NCBI GenBank assembly: GCA_039803205.1
Contig: JBDRYB010000001.1
Span: forward strand, 1-64,000
DNA length: 64,000 nucleotides
Source: a candidate division WOR-3 bacterium
GTDB taxonomy: Bacteria > Hydrothermota > Hydrothermia > JBDRYB01
Direction: 5' to 3'
The notes under the pieces were generated by a model. The model ran no database searches. It saw nothing but the letters and a program-made list of their open reading frames with translations, and was not told the DNA's origin. The translations under genes were made by a program, and so were the position numbers. Shown in pieces: positions 24,138 to 38,831 of this stretch (position 1 is its first letter; each line of letters starts with the position of its first letter).

Positions 24138-26435
24138 TCAGCCCCGGCCCTTCCAAACATACCCCTTCTTTCTCAGCCCTGTCATGTCCGCATCGGGGCC
24201 AAAGCACTCCTCAAAAAGCTCGTGGAAGCTCCCCGAACCTATCTCGTGGACCAACCTTCTGCCCTCAACCGAAAGCCCCCGAACCTCGCTCAGGGGTTCC
24301 AATCCCTCAGGGAGCTCATAGATTATCCCCACTATCTCGCCCCAGGCTGGCCTTCTGCCCTCCTCGCACGAGACCAGGCCAAACCCCTCAGGCAGGTAAT
24401 CTTCAAGCCTCTCCGAAAGCCCCTCATCCTCGCCTTCAATCTCAATGTAAAACATCTCCGCGTCCGAGGCCACCCCAAGAGGTGCTGGTGGGCCAGAGCT
24501 CAGGCTCGGCCTCATCACATAGCCCTTCGTGTAGCACATGAAAAAGCCAGCCCTTGATATGGCTCTCGTGAGGACCCTCATGGTGTCGTTGCCGGACAAA
24601 AACCTCGCGGGGCCGTGCTTTGACAAATTTATTACGAAGCCCTTTTTCGGTCTCTCGCTCCCCGTCCCCCGTTTCCCGGTGGTGGATAAAACTGTGTTCG
24701 GCTCCGGAAGCCCAAAGCAATACCTCCATCCCTGAGCTAGATATGGCCCGCAGTTGGCGCAAGAACCGCCCCGGCACGATGGGGTTACCTCAGCGCCTAT
24801 GGCTTTTGCTCTCTCCGAGAGGAGGAAATCCTCTTTTATGCCAGACTCAATTATATTATAAGGAAGAAATGAACCGGGCTCCTTCGGCTTCATGTAATCT
24901 TCAATCACCCTTCCAAATGATTCAAAGGCTCTGAGCCAGGCGCCAGGCCTCATTCCCTCGGTCCAATCATCAAAAAGCGCGCCCTCCCGATATGCCCCGA
25001 GGATCACCTCGCTCAGCTCCTCCCCTCCCCTGGCCAAAACACCTTCCAAAAGCGAGCCAAAGGGGTCCTTCATGGTGAGGCTCAGGTTCCTGGCCCTTGC
25101 TTCTGATTTAACTATACGGAAACGGGCTCTTGCCTCATCCGGGCCTATTTGGGGTTCCCACTGGAATGGGGTAAATGGCCTTGGGACGAATGTCGCGAAC
25201 GAGGCCTTTATGTTGAGGGAAGGAAAAGCTCTCGCTATCTTGCGAAGGAAACGGCCTGTCTCCCTGAGATCCTCCTCGGTCTCTGTGGGGAGGCCTATCA
25301 TGAAATAGAGCTTGACATGCTTAACCCTGAAGCGGCTCGCGGCCTCAAGGCTCCTCAGGACCGACTCAGGGGGCACGGACTTGTTTATTACTCTAGCCAG
25401 CCTTTCGGATGCGGTCTCGGGCGCCAGGGTAAATGATGATGTTCTTGAGCCACCTATCAAGGGGAGGATCCTCTCAAGCGCGTCAGCGGGAAGGGATGGG
25501 AGTGAGATCCTAACCCAGGGGAGATCCTCCCTTATCCGAGAAATAACCTCTTCAAGCCAGGGATACTCAGAGAGGGAAAAACCCGAAAGCCCTATCTCAT
25601 CCCAACCTGTTGACATGAGTCCCTCTTTGGCCAGGGATGTCGCATCCTCCGGGTCCCTCAGCCTCAGGGGCCTTGAACAAAAACCCCCTTGACAGAATCT
25701 GCATCCAGCTAGACAGCCGCGTGTCAGCTCAATCGTCAGCCTGTCGTGGGTTATGGCGATGTTGGGGACAACTGGCCTCCTAGGGAACCGGGGGAGCTCA
25801 GCGAACCTCCTGGCCGTTCCCCGATTGTATCCCGGAACATAAACCCCCCTGATCTTTGCGAGCTCCTTGAGAACCGCATCCCTATCCATATCCCTTCTGG
25901 CCCAAGCCAACAGGGGGCCCTCCATTTCCAGGATCACATCCTCCCCGTCGCCTATAACGAGAGCATCAAAAAACCGAGAGAGCGGGAGGGGATTCGCGGT
26001 GCAAGGGCCGCCGGCTATAACCAGAGGATGCTGGTTTCCCCTATGTTCTGATAAAATGGGTATCCCAGAGAGCTCAAGAACCTTGAGGGCGTTTGTGTAT
26101 GTGAGCTCTGTCTGAAGGGTTATGCCCACGACATCAAAATCCAAAACCGGGCTCTTGGTCTCCAGGCTGAAGAGGGGAATCCGCTCAGCCTCCATCAATC
26201 CAATGGCATCAACCCACGGAAGAAAAGCCCTCTCAGCGCACACCCCTGGCCTCGCGTTCAGCGCCTCGTAAAGGATGGCAAGGCCGAGATTGCTCATGCC
26301 TATCTCATATGTGTCCGGATAAACGAGGCACCACCGGAGAAACGCTCCCTCTTTTATGGTTGAGTTGAACTCGCCGCCAGTGTAGCGGCCGGGCTTTTCT
26401 AGACGGAGGAGATGGGGATAAAGGGGGTGGATCAA
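24138..26435 (-). CDS. B12-binding-type radical SAM protein fused to radical-SAM-linked (DUF2344-like) domain
   Basis: EKPGRYTGGE, YPDTYEIGMSNLG, RGCLAGCRFC; C-terminal K.G.ARFLS...Y.KGY..RP. Confidence 0.88.
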   Translation of the reverse strand: MIHPLYPHLLRLEKPGRYTGGEFNSTIKEGAFLRWCLVYPDTYEIGMSNLGLAILYEALNARPGVCAERAFLPWVDAIGLMEAERIPLFSLETKSPVLDFDVVGITLQTELTYTNALKVLELSGIPILSEHRGNQHPLVIAGGPCTANPLPLSRFFDALVIGDGEDVILEMEGPLLAWARRDMDRDAVLKELAKIRGVYVPGYNRGTARRFAELPRFPRRPVVPNIAITHDRLTIELTRGCLAGCRFCQGGFCSRPLRLRDPEDATSLAKEGLMSTGWDEIGLSGFSLSEYPWLEEVISRIREDLPWVRISLPSLPADALERILPLIGGSRTSSFTLAPETASERLARVINKSVPPESVLRSLEAASRFRVKHVKLYFMIGLPTETEEDLRETGRFLRKIARAFPSLNIKASFATFVPRPFTPFQWEPQIGPDEARARFRIVKSEARARNLSLTMKDPFGSLLEGVLARGGEELSEVILGAYREGALFDDWTEGMRPGAWLRAFESFGRVIEDYMKPKEPGSFLPYNIIESGIKEDFLLSERAKAIGAEVTPSCRGGSCANCGPYLAQGWRYCFGLPEPNTVLSTTGKRGTGSERPKKGFVINLSKHGPARFLSGNDTMRVLTRAISRAGFFMCYTKGYVMRPSLSSGPPAPLGVASDAEMFYIEIEGEDEGLSERLEDYLPEGFGLVSCEEGRRPAWGEIVGIIYELPEGLEPLSEVRGLSVEGRRLVHEIGSGSFHELFEECFGPDADMTGLRKKGYVWKGRG

Positions 26436-26548
26436 GTTAGAGAATAAAAAAGAACCTCTCTGTAGACAAGGGCAACACCTTTTGTCTCAAAAAGAAAAAT
26501 GCACGCAAAATCTGGATTCGCGGGCCAGGTTTTTCAACCCAAGAGCAA

Positions 26549-26920
26549 TCATTTCTTCCCTTCCCCAAACTCAACCAGAGATAGAACCGCCATCTCAGCG
26601 CAGTCCCCGCGCCTGGGGCCCAGTTTGACTATCCGGGTGTAGCCTCCTGGCCTATCCCTGTAGAGAGGGGCTATATCAGTGAAGAGCTTGTTGGTCAAGA
26701 CCCTGTCCACCAGAAAACGCCTTACCTCCCTCCTGTTGTGAACTGTGTCCTCTTTTGCCGTAGTTATCAAGCGCTCAGCGATCCGCCCGGCCGCCCGGGC
26801 CCTTGTCAGGGTTGTCTCCACCCTACCGCTCAGGAAAAGCCCCCTAACTATATTTCTCAGAATGGCCTTCCGGTGCTCCGGCTCCCTGTTGAGCTTAATA
26901 ACACGCTTGCGGTGCCTCAA
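26549..26920 (-). CDS. rplQ: 50S ribosomal protein L17
   Basis: MRHRK...R.GGYTRIVKLG.R.GD.A. Confidence 0.98.
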   Translation of the reverse strand: MRHRKRVIKLNREPEHRKAILRNIVRGLFLSGRVETTLTRARAAGRIAERLITTAKEDTVHNRREVRRFLVDRVLTNKLFTDIAPLYRDRPGGYTRIVKLGPRRGDCAEMAVLSLVEFGEGKK

Positions 26921-27936
26921 AGCTCCTCCTCCTTCATAACCTCTGAGAGGTCCATGCCGAAATCGAGTCCAAACTTCTCAAGGACCTCCCTTATCTCCTT
27001 GAGGGACTTCTCGCCAAAGTTTTTCACCTTTAGCATCTCCTTAGCGGTTTTGGCAACAAGGTCCCCTATGGTGACGAAGCCCGCTTCCTTTAGGCAGGTA
27101 AGGGTTCTCTTCTGGAGCTCCAGGGATTCAATCGGCTCCGAGATGATGGCCCTGATGCGTTGGCGCTGTTCAAACCTGAGCCTCCGTTCCTCATATGAGG
27201 GCAGAGGCGGAGCCTCCAGTCTTATCTGTAATTTCTCGGCCAATTTTCCAAATATCTCCAAGGCCTCAGCGAGGACATCGTCCGGACGCCTCGTCCCATC
27301 AGTCCATATCTCCAGGTTCAGCTTCTCTTTGTCCATCGCGGCCTTCACCCGAACATTCTCCACGGAGTAATTAACCCTCTTTACGGGATTGAAAAGCCCG
27401 TCAAGGAACAAGGTGCCGGCCGGGAAGCTCTCCCTGAGGGAGTCAGGATAGCCTTCAACGGGGACAAAACCGAGACCACGAATAGCCGTTAGCTCAGCGT
27501 ATATCTCTTCATCCTTTAGCTGGCCCGTAATGGAAAAAAGGTATTCCTCTGGGTTGACTATCTTCACGCCCGGAGGAAGTTCTATGGCCTCTGCCCTGAC
27601 CTCGCCCTTGCCCTTTGCTCTCAGATACAATTCCTGTCTATCATCCGCCTTGGGATCGAAAGCGAGCCGAACGCGCTTGAGGTTGAGAAGGATGATTGGA
27701 ATCTCCTCCAAAACGCCTGGGATGGTTGAAAACTCGTGAAATACATCCTTTATCCGGACGGCAACTATAGCGGCTCCACTAATAGAGGAAAGAAGGATGC
27801 GTCTCAGCGAATTGCCGACCGTATATCCATACCCCCTTTCTAGTGGGGATATGACAAACCTACCGTAACGGTCCTCAACCCTCTCCGCGTGAAAACCAAC
27901 GGGCAGGACCAGCTCAAACATCTCTGTTTTTTTCAT
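26917..27936 (-). CDS. rpoA: RNA polymerase alpha subunit
   Basis: PLERGYGYTVGNSLRRILLSS; CTD KNFGEKSL.EI. Confidence 0.98.
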   Translation of the reverse strand: MKKTEMFELVLPVGFHAERVEDRYGRFVISPLERGYGYTVGNSLRRILLSSISGAAIVAVRIKDVFHEFSTIPGVLEEIPIILLNLKRVRLAFDPKADDRQELYLRAKGKGEVRAEAIELPPGVKIVNPEEYLFSITGQLKDEEIYAELTAIRGLGFVPVEGYPDSLRESFPAGTLFLDGLFNPVKRVNYSVENVRVKAAMDKEKLNLEIWTDGTRRPDDVLAEALEIFGKLAEKLQIRLEAPPLPSYEERRLRFEQRQRIRAIISEPIESLELQKRTLTCLKEAGFVTIGDLVAKTAKEMLKVKNFGEKSLKEIREVLEKFGLDFGMDLSEVMKEEEL

Positions 27937-32408: not shown

Positions 32409-32480
32409 TCTGCCCGGAGAAGTTGTGGCGGCCTCTGACCAACCTGGAAAGCCTGTCCTGGGTTGCTTTATAATCTAGAT

Positions 32481-34280
32481 ATGAGAGCCCTCCTGTTGAT
32501 CCCTTGGGGTTGTGGGCTTATCCTTGCCCAGGAGAAGATCCTGATCCCCATGGATGCCTCTCAAACAGACCATCTCAGAGCATATGGTGTTGCCTACAGG
32601 ACACTGGCAAGGGGGGTTAATGTTGAGTGGCTTTTGAACTGGGAAGGGGGGAGCTTCATGTGCGATCACAACAAGGCTACAGCGGCCGAGTGCGATTCCC
32701 TCGGGGTTTTATATAGGGTAATATCCCCGTCCGAGGCCTCATCCATACACGCGCGGATAGAGGAGGCGAACGCGAACGCGGTTCTTCTTGAAAAGGCACC
32801 CAGGGTAGCGGTCTACATCCCGCCATACGAGGAACCATGGGACGATGCAGTTTCCCTTGCTCTTGAATACGCTGGAATACCCTATGACAGGATATGGGAC
32901 AGGGAGGTTCTCTCGGGCCAGCTCAGGAAATACGACTGGCTTCACCTTCATCACGAGGACTTCACGGGCCAGTATGGCAAGTTCTATGGTTCATACCGAA
33001 ACGCTCCGTGGTATCTTCAACAGGTTGAGATAAACGAGGCGATCGCGAAGGAGCTGGGATACCCCAATGTCCCTGAGGAAAAAAAGGCAGTCGCGAGGGC
33101 AATAAGGGAATATGTATCGGGGGGAGGGTTTCTGTTCGCGATGTGCTCGGGGCCCATTACCATGGACATAGCGCTTGCCGCGGAGGGCATTGACATCACC
33201 GAGGAGGTGTATGACGGGGATCCGCCTGACCCGGATTTCCAATCAAGGCTTGATTTCAGCAAGGCCATGGCTCTCAAGGACGCGCGGCTCATAACCAGCC
33301 CATACATATACGAGCACTCAGATGTTGATGTAACACGGGAGGCGAGTCTGAGGGGCGAAAATACATATTTCAGCCTCTTTGAGTTCTCAGCGAAATTTGA
33401 CCCCGTGCCCACCATGCTCACCCAGGACCACACTGGGGTTGTCAAGGAGTTCATGGGCCAGGATACGGGTTTCCGGAAGGACAAGCTTAAGCCAGAAGTG
33501 GTCGTAATGGGCCAGGTGGAGGGAACCGAGGAGGCAAAATACATATACGGGGCCTACGGAAAGGGCTTCTTCAGCTTTCTCGGAGGCCATGACCCTGAGG
33601 ACTACCAGCACATGGTAGGCGACCCCCCGACGGACCTCAGACTCCACAGAAACAGCCCAGGCTACAGGCTCATACTCAACAATGTGCTTTTCCCAGCGGC
33701 CAAAAGGGAAAAATTAAAGACATCGGCGCCCGGATGGGGTTTTGCTCTGGTTGGTGGGCCGAGATACACGACCGCGGCTGGGCATGAATCGCCGGGCCTG
33801 TCCTGGGAAATAAGCGCGCTTGGACTCATGGGAATCTCCGCGGGACTAACGAGCGGCCTTGGTTTCGGATTATCATGGTTTGATAGCAGGTCAGGGGATC
33901 TTCCGAATGGGGGCTGCGGCGAGGGTTACCTGGGGAAAGGTTTCAACGGAAGGCTCACTCTTATATGGGATCCCATGGCTGAAAGGATCTCGCAAACCAT
34001 CAGGCCACGGCTTACAGCAGAGGCTATCCTTTTCGGCATCCATTACCGCTATGAAGAAAGGGGTGCAGGTGGAACCCGTGTCTCTCCATGCACCTGGCGC
34101 GTTTTGCCTGTCATCCAGATGAGCGCTGGAGCGACCCTGGGGCCTCATCTGCAGATTGATCTTTCTGTTGCGACCGGGGCGGCCGCGCCAGGAGTCCATC
34201 CCGGTGAAACAATCGGTTATCCGGCATACCCGTGGTCCTTTGCCCTTACCAGCAGGCTCTGGTCCCAAAAACGCGCATGA
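32481..34280 (+). CDS. Exported conserved protein (class I glutamine-amidotransferase-like, often labelled 'asparagine synthetase B' in FCB genomes) with C-terminal extension
   Basis: LIPMD..QTDHLRAYG, DWLHLHHEDFTGQYGKFY, GGFLFAMCS, PGYRLILNNVLFPAA. Confidence 0.7.
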   Translation: MRALLLIPWGCGLILAQEKILIPMDASQTDHLRAYGVAYRTLARGVNVEWLLNWEGGSFMCDHNKATAAECDSLGVLYRVISPSEASSIHARIEEANANAVLLEKAPRVAVYIPPYEEPWDDAVSLALEYAGIPYDRIWDREVLSGQLRKYDWLHLHHEDFTGQYGKFYGSYRNAPWYLQQVEINEAIAKELGYPNVPEEKKAVARAIREYVSGGGFLFAMCSGPITMDIALAAEGIDITEEVYDGDPPDPDFQSRLDFSKAMALKDARLITSPYIYEHSDVDVTREASLRGENTYFSLFEFSAKFDPVPTMLTQDHTGVVKEFMGQDTGFRKDKLKPEVVVMGQVEGTEEAKYIYGAYGKGFFSFLGGHDPEDYQHMVGDPPTDLRLHRNSPGYRLILNNVLFPAAKREKLKTSAPGWGFALVGGPRYTTAAGHESPGLSWEISALGLMGISAGLTSGLGFGLSWFDSRSGDLPNGGCGEGYLGKGFNGRLTLIWDPMAERISQTIRPRLTAEAILFGIHYRYEERGAGGTRVSPCTWRVLPVIQMSAGATLGPHLQIDLSVATGAAAPGVHPGETIGYPAYPWSFALTSRLWSQKRA

Positions 34281-35623
34281 TAATCGCAGAACCCCAGCTG
34301 ATTGAACGCCTCGCTCTTTGGGCAATAAAGGAGCGAATTCCATTTCTGGGGCACTTTGGTCTCACGAGGCACTGCAACCTCATGTGCAGTTTCTGTCTGT
34401 GGGGGAAAAAACTGAAGCCTCGCGGTTTCATGTCACAGTTCCTTTTCAAAAAAGCCCTCTCGGAAATGAAGGAAATGGGCACCTTTGAGATAGAGCTGAC
34501 GGGGGGCGATCCTCTTCTTCATCCGCATCTGCCTGATTTCATAAGGATAGCAACCGATCTCAGATTCGTGATAGCGATAACAACCAACGGCCTCAGGTTA
34601 ACAGAAAGAAACCTGTCTGCGATAAAGGAGGGCCTGATCGCGCATGTTTCAGTGAGCATTCACGGAGCTAAGCCCGAAACCCACGACAGAATAGTGGGAA
34701 GACCAGGGGCCTGGAATATATCCCTCCGCAACATGGAGAAGCTTCTGGATAGTGGCGTAAGAACTATTGTTTGCTTCGTGATCACCAAGGAAAATCACCA
34801 GGAAGTCAAAAATGCCAAAGCCCTCTTTGAGAGCATGGGAGCCAGGTTTCAGATGGTCCTGAAGTTGTATAATCCCTTCTGTCTTGAAGAAGTTGAGGCC
34901 TTGAAGCTCAGGGGCCATGCCCTCGCGGATCTGATGGGCCTCTTCCCTGATCCGCCGGTGTGCCCTCATCCTTGCGGCGCTTTCATGAACGCGGTATATA
35001 TCAACCCCAACGGAGATGTTTGGCCCTGTATATCATTTCCCTTTAACCTGGGCAACATCGGTAAAACTAGCTTCAGGGAAATATGGGAAGGGATAAACAA
35101 GGAGACCAGGGCGCTCCGGAGAAACCTTGTCCGCGCGAGAGAGAAGGGAGTCTACCGCGGAGTAGAGTATTTTTGCCCATCAATAAGTCGTGGATATGAC
35201 GGTTCTCTGGGAGGCCTTGAACCCCATGTAAAGGAGATAATAGACGCCTGGTTGAATGAGAGAAACGAATCGGCCAAGAGCAATTTTTCCCTGGATGAAG
35301 TAGTGTCCCCGGACAGACAAATCGCTATAAAGCTCGGGGAAAATCATGGATTCGTTCCCGAGGACGATGTTGCCTTCAGGTTACTGAGGGGAAGGGAAGA
35401 GACCTACCTTGTTCTTTGGAAGAGATCCACGAGGAGATATGCGGCTCTGGAGGGTCCCTGGGCGGAAGCGGTGAGCTGTATCCTCTCTGGCCAAAGGATC
35501 AAGGATGCCCTAAAAATTTTGGAATCATCATTTAAGGGGTTCCGCATGAGCGAGGCCATAGTGGACATGGAAGCTCTTCTCAGCGAAATAGCCGGCATGG
35601 GTTTCATCAAACTTGCCATTTGA
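34277..35623 (+). CDS. Radical SAM enzyme with twitch/SPASM region and C-terminal PqqD/RRE-like domain
   Basis: CNLMCSFC, LTGGDP, CGA...YINPNGDVWPC; last ~90 aa form three strands + helices ending ...LLSEIAGMGFIK. Confidence 0.85.
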   Translation: MIIAEPQLIERLALWAIKERIPFLGHFGLTRHCNLMCSFCLWGKKLKPRGFMSQFLFKKALSEMKEMGTFEIELTGGDPLLHPHLPDFIRIATDLRFVIAITTNGLRLTERNLSAIKEGLIAHVSVSIHGAKPETHDRIVGRPGAWNISLRNMEKLLDSGVRTIVCFVITKENHQEVKNAKALFESMGARFQMVLKLYNPFCLEEVEALKLRGHALADLMGLFPDPPVCPHPCGAFMNAVYINPNGDVWPCISFPFNLGNIGKTSFREIWEGINKETRALRRNLVRAREKGVYRGVEYFCPSISRGYDGSLGGLEPHVKEIIDAWLNERNESAKSNFSLDEVVSPDRQIAIKLGENHGFVPEDDVAFRLLRGREETYLVLWKRSTRRYAALEGPWAEAVSCILSGQRIKDALKILESSFKGFRMSEAIVDMEALLSEIAGMGFIKLAI

Positions 35624-35661
35624 TCCGGATCACTTATCCGGATTCATGGCCCGGTTAAGCG

Positions 35662-35826
35662 CTATTCCTTTTTCGGAGGCGGCGGTGCTGCCTTAGCGAC
35701 CCCTGTGAGGCTCAGGACATCAGCATTCCTTTCCGTGGCCAATATCCTCGGTTTCTCGTAAGGCTTTACCACACGGTCCTTTATCCTCGGGACCCTTCTT
35801 CCCTTATCCTCAGAAGATTTTGCCAT
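35662..35826 (-). CDS. 54-aa peptide with YxxP leader motif, candidate RiPP precursor (not in ORF track)
   Basis: MAKSSEDKGRRVPRIKDRVVKPYEKPRILATERNADVLSLTGVAKAAPPPPKKE*; AAGGA upstream. Confidence 0.72.
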   Translation of the reverse strand: MAKSSEDKGRRVPRIKDRVVKPYEKPRILATERNADVLSLTGVAKAAPPPPKKE

Positions 35827-35840
35827 AATTATATCCTTCA

Positions 35841-36173
35841 TGGAGGCGGGGGGATTCGAACCCCCGTCCAGAGACCCAACCCGTAAAGCACCTACACGCT
35901 TAGCTCGCCCTATTAACGCTCTGGAGGCTGGGCGAGCGAGCCCTTCCAGAGGTTTGCCCCTCTGTTTAACCGGACCCGCGGGGCACGAGCCCGGCGACCC
36001 CGGATCTATGAGGCCCTTCTGGCGCGTCCGGGGAGCGCGGCCAGAGAACCTACGCCCTCAATTAGGCGTATGCGTATGCCTTTTCGGCAGTTATCTTTGC
36101 CGCTTTTTACGGGATGCGGCAACCCGACGTGCGCTTTATCGGGTCTATGGCCCTGTCAAGACCATTCGCCCCC
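35841..36173 (-). ncRNA. ssrA: tmRNA
   Basis: 5' GGGGGCG pairs with 3' CGCCTCC-A including G3:U; T arm GGGGGTTCGAATCCCCC; tag ORF after ATAACT: GCC GAA AAG GCA TAC GCA TAC GCC TAA (36088-36062). Confidence 0.95.
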
Positions 36174-36249
36174 AAAGCTAAGGCATATATAATAAAGGTT
36201 TTGCCGTGGAGGATCAAGTGCTTTTATGAGCGGGAATCTCTGGGACCCT

Positions 36250-36804
36250 CTAAATATCAATCAAAATCACCTTTATTGGCACGGCTGGAAAATGCCTCTT
36301 TAACCTCTCAATGTCCTCAATAAGCTGCTCTCCGTAGGAAACGCCGGATGACATTTCCTTGTGTAAGGCATAGGCAGGGACTATTTCTACGCCAGCATCA
36401 CAGTGGCCCTCGTTAAAGAAATACTGGAACTTAGCAAGATCGTAGAACATGAAAGCATACTTGCCCAGCTGAACTTCAACCAGAACCCTATCCTTCTGGA
36501 AATCTATCTGTTTAAACACCTTCACTGAATCAGAAACAAGTCTTTCGTCTTCGTATGGAAACCTCATATCATGATAGCTGCGGAGCTCCTTGAAGCCTCG
36601 CTTTGCAAACGCCCACCTGAACGCTCGGTTCATTTCCTTCGGATCGTAAAGGAGCTTACCTATCTTACCTTTCTCCTTGCTGATCTTGGTCTTCGTAGCT
36701 TGCACTTCTTCTATGATCTCGTCTATTTCGGACTCAATTACAGGGTATCTAACTCTCAATATCTCAAGCCCGCCCAAGTGCGAATACTCATAAACCTTTC
36801 TCAT
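36250..36804 (-). CDS. Type II restriction endonuclease, BglII/BstYI-like
   Basis: KQIDFQKDRVLVEVQLGKY..MFYDL.KF motif; coupled to an MTase. Confidence 0.85.
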   Translation of the reverse strand: MRKVYEYSHLGGLEILRVRYPVIESEIDEIIEEVQATKTKISKEKGKIGKLLYDPKEMNRAFRWAFAKRGFKELRSYHDMRFPYEDERLVSDSVKVFKQIDFQKDRVLVEVQLGKYAFMFYDLAKFQYFFNEGHCDAGVEIVPAYALHKEMSSGVSYGEQLIEDIERLKRHFPAVPIKVILIDI

Positions 36805-37763
36805 AAGAGACTATCCTCCCAGGGTTGTTTTTTACCCGGCGGCTCATATATGGGCGTCCCCATCTCCCGAAGTCTAAGCTTGCCGCAGGAGAACAAATTC
36901 AACCTTTCAAGCCCTATTTTGTAATATCTTTCATTTATCTCTGCTCCGACAAAGCGCCTTCTGTGCTTTATGGCCGCAATCGCGGATGAAGCCACGCCCA
37001 TGAATGGATCGAAGACCCACTCGTCCTCGTTTGTTAATGAGAGGACAAGTCTCTCTATCAGCTCAACCGGAAACTGAGCTGGGTGCTCGGTCTTCTCCGG
37101 GTGATTACACTTGACATTCGGTATATCCCAGACATCTGTAGGGTTCTTGCCTAGGGGATTACAGGAAGGCTTACCTTTATTCGGCCCTTTGTGGAACTTC
37201 TTGCCCGGATACCTCTGAGGAACCCGAACAGCATCAAGGTTAAAGACATAGGGCTCGCCCTTAGTGAACCACATTATAACCTCGTATCTACCAGAAAATC
37301 TCTTGGACGCGTGAAGCCCGTGCCTGAAGTGCCATACTATCCGGTTGCGCATTACGAGGCCGAGATCCCTGAAAATAGGATAAAGCAGATAATCTATTGG
37401 GATTATACTGCTGTTTTTAACCCAATTTCCGACCTGCCAGCATATAGAACCCCCGGTCTTTGTCACTCGTAAAGCCTCTTTTATTATCTCTCTGTGCCAC
37501 CTTACATATTCATCAAGATCCATCTTTTGCTCGTATTCCTTGCCTATGTTGTATGGAGGAGAGGTTACTGTGAGCTGGACGCTTTCATCCGGTATGAAAC
37601 GCACCAGATCAAAAGCTGAGCCCAGATAAAGGCAGGCCTGTGCAGAGCTATCATAGGTGTTCGTTATCCGTATTTCTCTCTGTTGGTGGGGAACATCCAA
37701 CAGAACCGAAGCCTTGCCATTCAGAAGATCAGAAAGAATCCCCAAAGAATCTCGCTCTGCCAT
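36801..37763 (-). CDS. N4-C/N6-A DNA methyltransferase (beta class)
   Basis: TSPPYN precedes HPAQFP and DPFMG. Confidence 0.93.
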   Translation of the reverse strand: MAERDSLGILSDLLNGKASVLLDVPHQQREIRITNTYDSSAQACLYLGSAFDLVRFIPDESVQLTVTSPPYNIGKEYEQKMDLDEYVRWHREIIKEALRVTKTGGSICWQVGNWVKNSSIIPIDYLLYPIFRDLGLVMRNRIVWHFRHGLHASKRFSGRYEVIMWFTKGEPYVFNLDAVRVPQRYPGKKFHKGPNKGKPSCNPLGKNPTDVWDIPNVKCNHPEKTEHPAQFPVELIERLVLSLTNEDEWVFDPFMGVASSAIAAIKHRRRFVGAEINERYYKIGLERLNLFSCGKLRLREMGTPIYEPPGKKQPWEDSLL

Positions 37764-37790: not shown

Positions 37791-38831
37791 CTACGGTTCA
37801 AACACCCCAGGAACCCTCACTCCGCAATCCGGACACCTCCCCTCCTTTAACCTATTTTCAAGAAGGGAAAACCGCCACCTCCTTATGAGGGTTTTCCCGC
37901 AGGATGGGCAACGGGTATCCTCAAGCCCTCTCATTTCCCTGTTCCCGGGGTATACGAACAGTAAGCCCTCTTCACGGCCTATCTCCATGGCTTTCGTGAT
38001 GGAGGAGACAGAAGTCGGGGGGATGCTGTGGACCTTGTAGGCAGGGTAAAAACCGGAGATGTGCCACGGGGTCTCAGGGCCAAGCTCCTGAGCTACGAAC
38101 CTGGCCATTTCTCTGATCTCCCCCTCAGAATCGTTCACCCCTGGAACAAGGAGGGTGGTTACCTCAACCCACACCCCCATGCTCTTCATTATTTTCAACG
38201 CATTCATCACTGGCCTAGGCCTCCCGCCGGTCCATTTCTGCATGGAGGACTTGTTCACAAACTTGAAATCAACATTGGCCGCGTCCAACAATCCCTTCAA
38301 CTCACAAAGCGGTTTCGGGTTTATGAACCCATTCGTAACCCAATTGTTCTTTAGGCCTCGCTCCTTCGCCATTCTCATGGTGTCTAAAGCATATTCATAG
38401 TATATCGTGGGTTCGGTGTATGTGTAGCTTATTGAGGGAACTCCAGCGCTCAGCGCGGCCCTGACTATCTCATTTGGCGGAACCTGTTTTCTCGCAAGGG
38501 CATCCATGGTCCTGGGCTCAAGAACCGGCAGTTGGCTTATCTCCCAGTTTTGGCACCAGAGGCAGGATAGATTACAGCCGGGCGCGGCAACCGAGAGGCT
38601 CGCGGTTCCTGGCAGAAAGTGATAGAGCGGCTTTTTTTCAATGGGGTCTATGTGCGCGGCAATGAGAACGCCGTAATTCAGGCTGATGAGCTCATGGCCC
38701 CGTCTCTCCCTAACCCCGCAGGTGCCGCGCTCGCCTTCTCTGAGCCTACAAGAATGGGGGCACAGGTTGCAGATGATCTCCTGATCCTTCTGGGTGAAAA
38801 AAAGCGCCTTTCTGCTCATCAAAACCCCCAT
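37791..38831 (-). CDS. amrS: AmmeMemoRadiSam-system radical SAM enzyme
   Basis: CNLCPHSC, DPIEKKPLYHFLPG, CNLSCLWCQNWEISQ, C-terminal CPSC/CPDC. Confidence 0.9.
   Translation of the reverse strand: MGVLMSRKALFFTQKDQEIICNLCPHSCRLREGERGTCGVRERRGHELISLNYGVLIAAHIDPIEKKPLYHFLPGTASLSVAAPGCNLSCLWCQNWEISQLPVLEPRTMDALARKQVPPNEIVRAALSAGVPSISYTYTEPTIYYEYALDTMRMAKERGLKNNWVTNGFINPKPLCELKGLLDAANVDFKFVNKSSMQKWTGGRPRPVMNALKIMKSMGVWVEVTTLLVPGVNDSEGEIREMARFVAQELGPETPWHISGFYPAYKVHSIPPTSVSSITKAMEIGREEGLLFVYPGNREMRGLEDTRCPSCGKTLIRRWRFSLLENRLKEGRCPDCGVRVPGVFEP

Follow-up and report, generated by a model that had tools for sequence, protein, structure and literature searches.

The locus described here raises one question: what does a radical S-adenosylmethionine (radical SAM) enzyme that carries a RiPP recognition element (RRE; RiPP, ribosomally synthesised and post-translationally modified peptide) at its C-terminus act on, and is that substrate the product of the small gene that converges on it? 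Both genes lie in a stretch of 64,000 nucleotides (nt) from a candidate division WOR-3 bacterium (Hydrothermota; assembly GCA_039803205.1, contig JBDRYB010000001.1, positions 1 to 64,000 of the forward strand), which we call the window; the genome that contains it is referred to as G000. A first-pass annotation, made from the letters of the window, had proposed the two genes as a candidate new RiPP system. Judged from the sequence evidence assembled here, the pairing of enzyme and peptide is plausible and unproven, and we prefer it only tentatively. The chemistry of the pair cannot be named from sequence; the pair, if real, may represent an RRE-dependent radical SAM modification. The features on which this answer depends are as follows.

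34277..35623, plus strand: radical SAM enzyme, 448 amino acids (aa), from Pfam, NCBIfam and orthologue alignment
34973..35119, plus strand: SPASM match, residues 233-281 of the enzyme (Pfam, E 1.6e-9)
35330..35620, plus strand: C-terminal RRE, residues 352-448 of the enzyme (97 aa), predicted from an AF2 model, Foldseek and a second structure aligner
35662..35826, minus strand: small conserved gene, 54 aa, whose N-terminal 'leader' is basic and conserved and whose Ser/Pro-rich tail varies (open reading frame, homologues, codon pattern)
35743..35760, minus strand: YEKPRI motif of the peptide, with Y23, P26 and I28 (family alignment)

The radical SAM enzyme and its C-terminal domain

The enzyme comprises a core at residues 29-180, a reduced SPASM/twitch-like part from residue 233, a variable linker and the C-terminal RRE. 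Its membership of the radical SAM superfamily is given by the Pfam match to Radical_SAM (PF04055, residues 29-180, E 3.2e-24), and the three cysteines of the CxxxCxxC core (C33, C37 and C40) are invariant in the alignment of all 10 full-length orthologues. A full SPASM motif has seven cysteines and two auxiliary clusters. The window enzyme falls short of this motif: its Pfam match is partial, covering profile positions 1-52 of 67, and past the core only three cysteines are invariant among the 10 orthologues, C233 and C251 inside the SPASM span and C300 downstream of it (35174-35176). Because these are the only invariant cysteines beyond the core, the auxiliary part appears reduced and twitch-like, and on this pattern the label 'rSAM/twitch' given in the first-pass annotation was a fair one.

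NCBIfam models matched the core only and scored far under their cut-offs, the best being heme b synthase with 101 bits vs 500, and the closest solved relative by sequence is SkfB (E 1.1e-13), also over the core only. The start codon is the ATG at 34277, and the orthologues start at the aligned Met. The full-length orthologues form 10 protein clusters that are 49-99% identical; among 41 related genomes an orthologue was found in the 3 genomes of one genus only, and five metagenome loci also carry one. A model of the full-length enzyme, with a mean predicted local distance difference test score (pLDDT) of 63.3 and values <50 in the twitch region, was too poor for use.

The C-terminal domain was modelled separately with AlphaFold2 (AF2) from an alignment of 7 orthologous pieces. 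The model of residues 352-448 (pLDDT 93.5, predicted TM score 0.84) shows three strands followed by three helices, the winged-helix arrangement of an RRE. In a Foldseek search against the PDB, the top four rows were lasso B1-leader complexes (5v1v_A, 5v1u_A, 5v1u_B and 6jx3_B; TM score 0.70-0.82, root-mean-square deviation (rmsd) 2.0-2.3 Å), with E-values of 2.2e-3 to 3.3e-2 that fall short of the tool's 1e-3 mark. An aligner independent of Foldseek matched 5v1u_A (TbiB1) with Z 11.8 over 84 of 84 residues at an rmsd of 1.8 Å, and 6jx3_B (TfuB1) with Z 11.0. Its lower rows held an unrelated methyltransferase domain (Z 9.3) and then PqqD 5sxy (Z 8.4), after which came the RREs of ThcOx, PbtF, TigE, LynD, SuiB (Z 5.4), CteB (Z 5.0) and MibB. 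On these models the domain is an RRE fold, specifically a lasso-B1-like one, which bears out at the level of predicted fold the PqqD-like C-terminal domain named in the first-pass annotation. The likeness to the lasso B1 proteins (TbiB1-TbiA, 5v1u/5v1v; TfuB1, 6jx3) extends over the whole chain, at 1.8-2.1 Å, and includes a YxxPxI motif nearby; the differences are that the window RRE forms, by fusion, the C-terminal end of a radical SAM enzyme and that the identity is only 16-20%.

At the level of sequence profiles the domain stands apart. Pfam PqqD (PF05402) had no match in the enzyme at E<0.1, and a scan of the whole of G000 with PF05402 led to three other places, the fused RRE not being among them. 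Alignment of the RRE with 10 local PqqD proteins by hhalign covered helix 3 only (probability 79%). A profile of the RRE searched against 1.84 billion representatives recovered its own family and one weak match, with no wider sequence family, and found nothing at E<=10 among PDB sequences.

SkfB, CteB, SuiB and PqqE-type enzymes have their RRE at the N-terminus or as a protein of its own. The window enzyme shares with SkfB (6efn), CteB (5wgg), SuiB (5v1q) and PqqE (6c8v, with PqqD) a radical SAM core, a C-terminal auxiliary part and an RRE; it differs from them in having three invariant cysteines beyond the core and a candidate core peptide that contains no Cys, Trp, Tyr or Phe.

The closest radical SAM relatives of the enzyme suggest how the unusual arrangement may have arisen. 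They are found at locus L004 (genome G032; E 1e-33, 26% identical) and locus L035 (metagenome; 31% identical), are 326-328 aa long and lack the C-terminal domain. At both loci the order is a small-peptide open reading frame (ORF), the radical SAM gene, a gene for a ~90-aa protein and transporter ORFs of the ATP-binding cassette (ABC) type; the exporter of L035 consists of an ABC ATPase and an ABC-2 permease confirmed by Pfam, and the ORFs of L004 are ABC-like by sequence. The ~90-aa protein of L035 aligned with the fused RRE in hhalign (E 1.4e-4, probability 53%), with a common EG.WA...SSF pattern, and neither ~90-aa protein had a PqqD match in Pfam. The peptide ORFs, of 31-35 aa, read MKKLEKPIVKIVNTASVSTGPGPLPNNSCRCFPNR or MEKSSEPKVVVTVIAVPISYPNNSCRCWPEK, and in one of these peptides LEKPIV, a variant of the window peptide's motif with the form LxxPxV, stands close to the N-terminus. 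The window enzyme appears, from these comparisons, to be a fusion of a radical SAM enzyme and an RRE that were once separate neighbouring genes of such a cassette, an origin that would account for the RRE's uncommon place at the C-terminus. The cassettes also differ from the window locus: there a gene of its own encodes the RRE, the peptide ORF lies upstream and is co-directional, the peptide ends in a Cys motif and an ABC exporter is present, none of which holds at the window locus. When the L004 enzyme was searched back against 272 genomes of the phylum, only itself and the three enzymes of the window's family, f1, were recovered at E<=1e-25, the L004 and f1 enzymes being mutual best matches in this set. 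The L004-type cassette, which is uncharacterised, occurs in only 1 of the 269 phylum genomes outside f1.

The small convergent gene and its pairing with the enzyme

The gene that faces the enzyme has its stop side 38 nt beyond the end of the radical SAM gene, with an alternative ATG at 35841. Its 54-aa product contains KPYEKPRI and ends ...SLTGVAKAAPPPPKKE, the end of the tail being PPPPKKE. The first-pass annotation had picked out this ORF, which we find to be a conserved gene: 7 protein clusters match its product at 60-100% identity, and the differences between orthologues fall mainly on the third position of codons (4/3/16 and 5/5/19, for instance, across the three positions). Because third-position differences dominate, we conclude that the small gene is translated and under purifying selection.

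The alignment of the f1 peptides shows a conserved N-terminal part, RRVPRI.DR..KPYEKP.IL...RN, followed by a variable tail. In 9/9 sequences the tail retains a Pro or Gly preceded by Ser or Thr, and in most of them a PPP(P) run stands near its end. All nine aligned f1 peptides have the Y, P and I of YEKP.I without change. The peptide contains no Cys, and no aromatic residue follows Tyr23, so the description of the putative core as free of both, made in the first-pass annotation, was correct. In PMC13381572, discrete lasso RREs are described as recognising [Y/W]xxPx[L/V/I/F/A], a pattern into which YEKPRI fits by its sequence, and a second RiPP family, the linear polyphosphorylated peptides, is described as carrying a YxxPxV that is read by its own RRE. 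PMC12710340 adds that variation from YxxP to LxxP is tolerated. The identification of YxxPxL/I as the RRE-binding motif of lasso leaders, on which the original proposal relied, was broadly right in the light of PMC13381572.

Among all 20-90-aa ORFs of G000 there was no other YEKP-type small ORF of note, and no second motif-bearing small ORF was found beside the enzyme. A scan of the genome_contigs collection with the peptide alignment gave 70 pattern matches, of which 0 were confirmed.

We favour the pair because an RRE needs a peptide partner, because this RRE is of the type that reads YxxP, and because the only small conserved gene nearby bears the motif as its invariant centre. The leader-plus-tail layout of the peptide, and the small peptides and exporters in the cassettes of the enzyme's relatives, also count in its favour. 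Enzyme and peptide are both present in 3/3 genomes of the genus, and the order of upstream gene, radical SAM gene and convergent peptide gene plus transfer-messenger RNA (tmRNA) gene recurs in 7/8 orthologous loci, so YxxP peptides do lie beside the enzyme in most of these loci.

In the mechanism that we tentatively prefer, the 448-aa enzyme would be a peptide-modifying radical SAM enzyme whose likeliest substrate is the 50-54-aa product of the convergent small gene. Its RRE would bind the invariant KPYEKPRIL, as lasso B1 proteins bind YxxPxL leaders, and binding of this leader would bring the C-terminal tail, variable and rich in Ser and Pro, to the active site. There, a 5'-deoxyadenosyl radical would take hydrogen from an aliphatic C-H, and candidate outcomes are epimerisation or a C-C or C-O link made without Cys. 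The radical SAM peptide epimerases PoyD and YydG act on aliphatic residues and need neither Cys nor an aromatic residue. They offer a lead on chemistry only, as no sequence or context link between them and the window locus was found. Complex prediction of the RRE domain with the peptide against controls gave values of 0.44, 0.46 and 0.44 vs 0.40 for one control, and was counted neither way.

A pair of this kind would matter in three respects: it would place radical SAM chemistry on a peptide core that lacks the usual Cys or aromatic handles, it would mean that a B1-type RRE was recruited to a radical SAM C-terminus by fusion, and its precursor gene would ride on the tmRNA transcript. The most specific version of the proposal, a new radical SAM RiPP type from uncultured Hydrothermia/WOR-3 bacteria of hot springs in which the f1 enzyme modifies a Cys-free, aromatic-free and Pro-rich core, the precursor comes from the tmRNA trailer, and the same YxxPxI leader serves the radical SAM-RRE enzyme in f1 and a membrane acyltransferase in a sister family, f2, is one that we regard as doubtful. 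Even if the pair is false, there remain a small YxxPxI family spread over two bacterial families and a protein gene behind a tmRNA gene, neither of which we found described in the open-access texts searched.

The tmRNA gene, the sister family and the case against the pairing

Three elements that bear on the pairing were not part of the first-pass annotation: a tmRNA gene beside the small ORF, the separation of peptide and enzyme in one genome, G002, and homologues of the peptide without the enzyme in family f2. The first of these adds two features to the locus.

35838/35841..36173, minus strand: tmRNA gene (ssrA), tag peptide AEKAYAYA (ARAGORN; Rfam, 153 bits)
36189..36217, minus strand: sigma-70-like promoter match, 16 nt upstream of the tmRNA 5' end (consensus match only)

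The observations gathered in this part of the analysis weigh against assigning the peptide to this enzyme, beginning with gene order. The peptide and enzyme genes are convergent and not co-directional. In G002, the one exception among the eight loci, the radical SAM gene faces an FtsK-like gene (read from sequence), and the peptide gene lies on another contig, 21 nt behind the tmRNA gene. Synteny shared within one genus may, moreover, reflect common descent and not selection. In 8/8 loci (35826-36173 on the minus strand of the window, L002, L023 and L030-L034, all of one genus) the peptide gene stands behind the tmRNA gene, with a gap of 14-54 nt between the tmRNA 3' end and the peptide gene and an AAGGA-like ribosome-binding site; in the window itself, the ATG stands 14 nt past the tmRNA 3' end and is preceded by AAGGA. 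Because G002 keeps peptide and tmRNA together apart from the radical SAM gene, and because the short gap to the tmRNA gene holds in all eight loci, the peptide gene is tied more tightly to tmRNA than to the enzyme. Two divergent peptide clusters (P0081 and P0082) and two clusters of the upstream protein (P0091 and P0092) each show one contig of matching length (7169 and 3995 nt), lengths that no radical SAM cluster shows; as small or partial genes often go uncalled, these contigs may or may not carry the enzyme.

The promoter evidence points the same way. On the minus strand between 34000 and 36400, no other sigma-70-like match was found, and none for the small gene itself. Because the sole minus-strand promoter match precedes the tmRNA gene and the ATG lies 14 nt behind it, the small gene is probably expressed as part of the tmRNA transcript, in its 3' trailer, and not with the enzyme, as far as sequence signals allow this to be read. 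A protein-coding gene encoded in a tmRNA precursor trailer seems unusual, and no description of a protein gene 14-54 nt behind tmRNA, or of a precursor on a tmRNA transcript, was found in open-access full texts.

Metatranscriptome contigs from two libraries of one study covered the tmRNA nearly exactly, and two low-depth pieces fell on the radical SAM gene (34990-35225 and 35456-35654); no contig fell on the peptide ORF or bridged tmRNA and ORF, and such contigs cannot show transcription or its absence. One 309-nt contig (run X5, depth ~100) joins 36145 to 35867 within the tmRNA in a circular-looking junction, which, as a single contig from a single run, could stem from an error of assembly or from RNA that is circularised or permuted.

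The third element is the distribution of the peptide family. A profile of the peptide matched in 15/272 genomes of the phylum, comprising 3/3 in f1, 12/12 in f2 and none elsewhere, and all 12 f2 genomes lack this radical SAM enzyme: the best f2 match to it (E 9.4e-19) spans residues 10-273 only and is no orthologue. The f2 peptides are 36-41 aa long, keep RRVPR[IL]..[RK]KPY[EQ]KP.[IV] and typically end GRTSSRGGSILITY. They follow the pattern M..ERRVPR[IL]S.RKPY[EQ]KP... (loci L082-L093 and L112-L115), retain Y[EQ]KP.[IV] in 11/11 peptides read and lack the polyproline end. In 11/12 loci read, the peptide gene lies directly upstream of a 349-390-aa ORF, the motif search having missed one. This ORF is Acyl_transf_3/HGSNAT, a membrane acyltransferase, according to Pfam in the three f2 genomes tested; it has no match in G000. 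No tmRNA gene was found in the four f2 loci (three genomes) scanned. In genus g18 of f2, a PmbA/TldD-type peptidase follows the acyltransferase ORF.

One conserved 'leader' combined with different tails and neighbours across f1 and f2 fits RiPP-like logic, as judged from the alignments, and the f2 pattern equally shows that the peptide is independent of this radical SAM enzyme. Set against the expectation that a precursor lies beside its maturase, the peptide gene is adjacent to the enzyme in 7/8 loci, but it is convergent, tied to tmRNA in 8/8, apart from the enzyme in G002 and enzyme-free in 12/12 f2 genomes. The enzyme-peptide pair advanced in the first-pass annotation therefore stands as regards adjacency and the invariant YxxPxI, and fails as regards an exclusive link. 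A further difficulty lies in the relatives at L004 and L035, whose predicted precursors have the Cys core PNNSCRC[WF]P in common, while the window peptide has no Cys; no Cys-type peptide like theirs was found among the 20-90-aa ORFs of G000.

At the f2 loci L097 and L099 (G083 and G030), a discrete PqqD gene and then an ATP-grasp gene precede that of a pyridoxal-phosphate-dependent decarboxylase that begins MA[KR]RYEKPVIHRL, which puts a YxxPxI motif at the N-terminus of a full-size decarboxylase. From these sequences, YEKP.I seems to be widely used as an RRE signal in this lineage. Other RREs of G000 could read YEKP.I, and possession of the motif is not enough to make the peptide a partner of the fused RRE in particular.

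These findings bear on a rival explanation, in which the product of the small gene is an ordinary small basic protein peculiar to the lineage, or an element linked to translation, made from the tmRNA transcript. Its basic N-terminus would bind some widespread partner in the cell, its YxxP would be coincidental and the substrate of the radical SAM enzyme would be elsewhere. The constant position of the gene after tmRNA with its AAGGA-like ribosome-binding site, its stay with tmRNA in G002 and its homologues without the enzyme in f2 all agree with this explanation, as does a rough estimate that YxxPx[ILV] would arise by chance in ~2-3% of 54-aa ORFs. The PPP(P) run near the stop in most f1 peptides, which may stall ribosomes, could be accommodated in the same way. 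However, the motif forms the invariant heart of the peptide family in both bacterial families and is not the chance feature of one sequence, and the f2 homologues lie away from tmRNA and have no polyproline end, so that neither trait defines the family. The fused RRE, in addition, requires a peptide to bind, and no second candidate for that role turned up. We consider this explanation unlikely. A further reading, in which conservation of the small ORF reflects only RNA structure in the tmRNA trailer, was rejected because of the codon-position pattern and because f2 homologues occur away from tmRNA genes.

Other recognition elements, the upstream gene and the remaining neighbours

A second rival explanation starts from the other RREs of the genome. 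On contig C21 of G000 (~24734-27168, locus L105), a gene for a lasso-type PqqD follows that of a Wza-like polysaccharide exporter and is itself followed by genes for a P-loop protein and an NTP_transf_5 protein, in this order. The best NCBIfam names for the PqqD are lasso PqqD chaperone and HPr-rel-A system PqqD (33.4 bits vs a cut-off of 35), and for the P-loop protein HprK-related kinase A, with 55 bits vs a cut-off of 200. According to PMC13381572, the conserved gene set for linear polyphosphorylated peptides consists of an RRE, a kinase resembling HprK, an NTP transferase, a signal peptidase and an MsbA-like transporter, and these clusters are embedded in polysaccharide loci and have precursors with YxxPxV. 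Relative to these peptides and to paeninodin-type tailoring, the likeness lies in a YxxPx[V/L] leader, a conserved N-terminus with a variable C-terminus, and the occurrence in G000 of PqqD, an HprK-like protein and NTP_transf_5 in a polysaccharide-export context; the differences are that the G000 module is on another contig, that its kinase match is below the cut-off and that the polyphosphorylated-peptide system contains no radical SAM enzyme.

The peptide could accordingly be the substrate of this other machinery, with its Ser/Thr residues phosphorylated or nucleotidylated and its synteny with the radical SAM gene merely inherited. The gene order on C21 and the names of its proteins (all under their cut-offs) agree with this, as do the resemblance of the module to the polyphosphorylated-peptide gene set with its YxxPxV precursors, the Ser/Thr before Pro/Gly in all nine f1 tails, and the presence of the peptide family without the radical SAM enzyme in every f2 genome. 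A distant radical SAM relative at locus L039 (metagenome), where NTP_transf_5, a 274-aa protein, PqqD and a radical SAM/SPASM gene stand in a row, shares one cassette with PqqD and NTP_transf_5. Yet the peptide gene lies nowhere near the C21 module, and no precursor gene was found beside that module; of the published gene set, the comparison covers the three module genes, which occur together. The kinase-like protein does not co-distribute cleanly with the peptide: it is present in f1 (3/3), in f2 (12/12, weak matches at 27-35% identity) and also in f8 (6/7), where no peptide homologue was found, and the three f2 loci inspected have a different context and no adjacent PqqD. This explanation would also leave the RRE fused to the radical SAM enzyme without a substrate, and we judge it improbable.

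The lasso-peptide reading was rejected. In G000 the cyclase search gave one short PF00733 match (E 5.6e-7, 64/354 positions) and the B2 protease search one sub-cut-off PF13471 match, both away from the locus and neither convincing, which extends to the whole genome the earlier remark that no lasso cyclase is nearby. The tail is unlike a lasso core; as read from its sequence, the window peptide has no acidic residue 7-9 positions after a Thr-x cleavage site.

The last rival explanation concerns the gene directly upstream of the enzyme. The remaining features of the locus are listed with it.

32463..34280, plus strand: upstream gene, 605 aa, with a signal-peptide-like N-terminus; the family is labelled 'asparagine synthetase B' by sources
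35623..35643, no strand: ATCCGGAT-N5-ATCCGGAT palindrome, starting in the radical SAM stop codon, between the convergent genes
36250..37763 and 37791..38831, minus strand: BglII-type endonuclease with N6/N4 DNA methylase, just upstream of the tmRNA gene, and after them an AmmeMemoRadiSam-system radical SAM enzyme (E 1.1e-100)

The radical SAM enzyme might mature the coupled 605-aa secreted protein, as anaerobic sulfatase-maturing enzymes do before export. The start of the enzyme gene overlaps the stop of the 605-aa gene as ATGA, an overlap seen in 4/7 loci checked, the two genes adjoin in 8/8 loci, and the 605-aa protein contains PYEEPW, a YxxP-like stretch. This stretch seems, however, to lie inside a conserved folded part of the protein, and the leader peptides that RREs bind are as a rule extended. 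The 605-aa family is very large, with all 8000 scored candidates at E<=0.001; among the 120 matches listed, identities are 59-84% (one 99%), lengths are mostly ~390-450 aa and source labels come from several phyla. The radical SAM-RRE type is confined to one genus and a few metagenome contigs, so the 605-aa family does not need the enzyme. Because so large a family does not depend on so narrow an enzyme, we regard the 605-aa protein as a very unlikely substrate. The family has no Pfam domain, and a protein atlas query with the 605-aa protein gave no usable match. The six listed clusters nearest to it (577-601 aa) have an extra C-terminal extension of ~170 aa that is absent from most members.

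Neither an exporter nor a leader protease was found in the cluster. The locus neighbours are other genes: the 'AsnB'-labelled gene, the tmRNA gene, the BglII-type restriction-modification pair and the AmmeMemoRadiSam radical SAM enzyme.

The palindrome between the convergent genes, to which the first-pass annotation had drawn attention, is present, and its predicted fold is an 8-bp hairpin (z -2.2). The 5 other convergent loci examined do not share the sequence; there, each gap (38-70 nt) folds into a different predicted hairpin. An operator or other functional site was rejected on this lack of conservation and on the frequency of the 8-mer, with 5 copies in the window where 1.3 are expected, a count that 2 of 100 shuffles reach. 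The element is probably a terminator or 3'-end hairpin specific to this genome.

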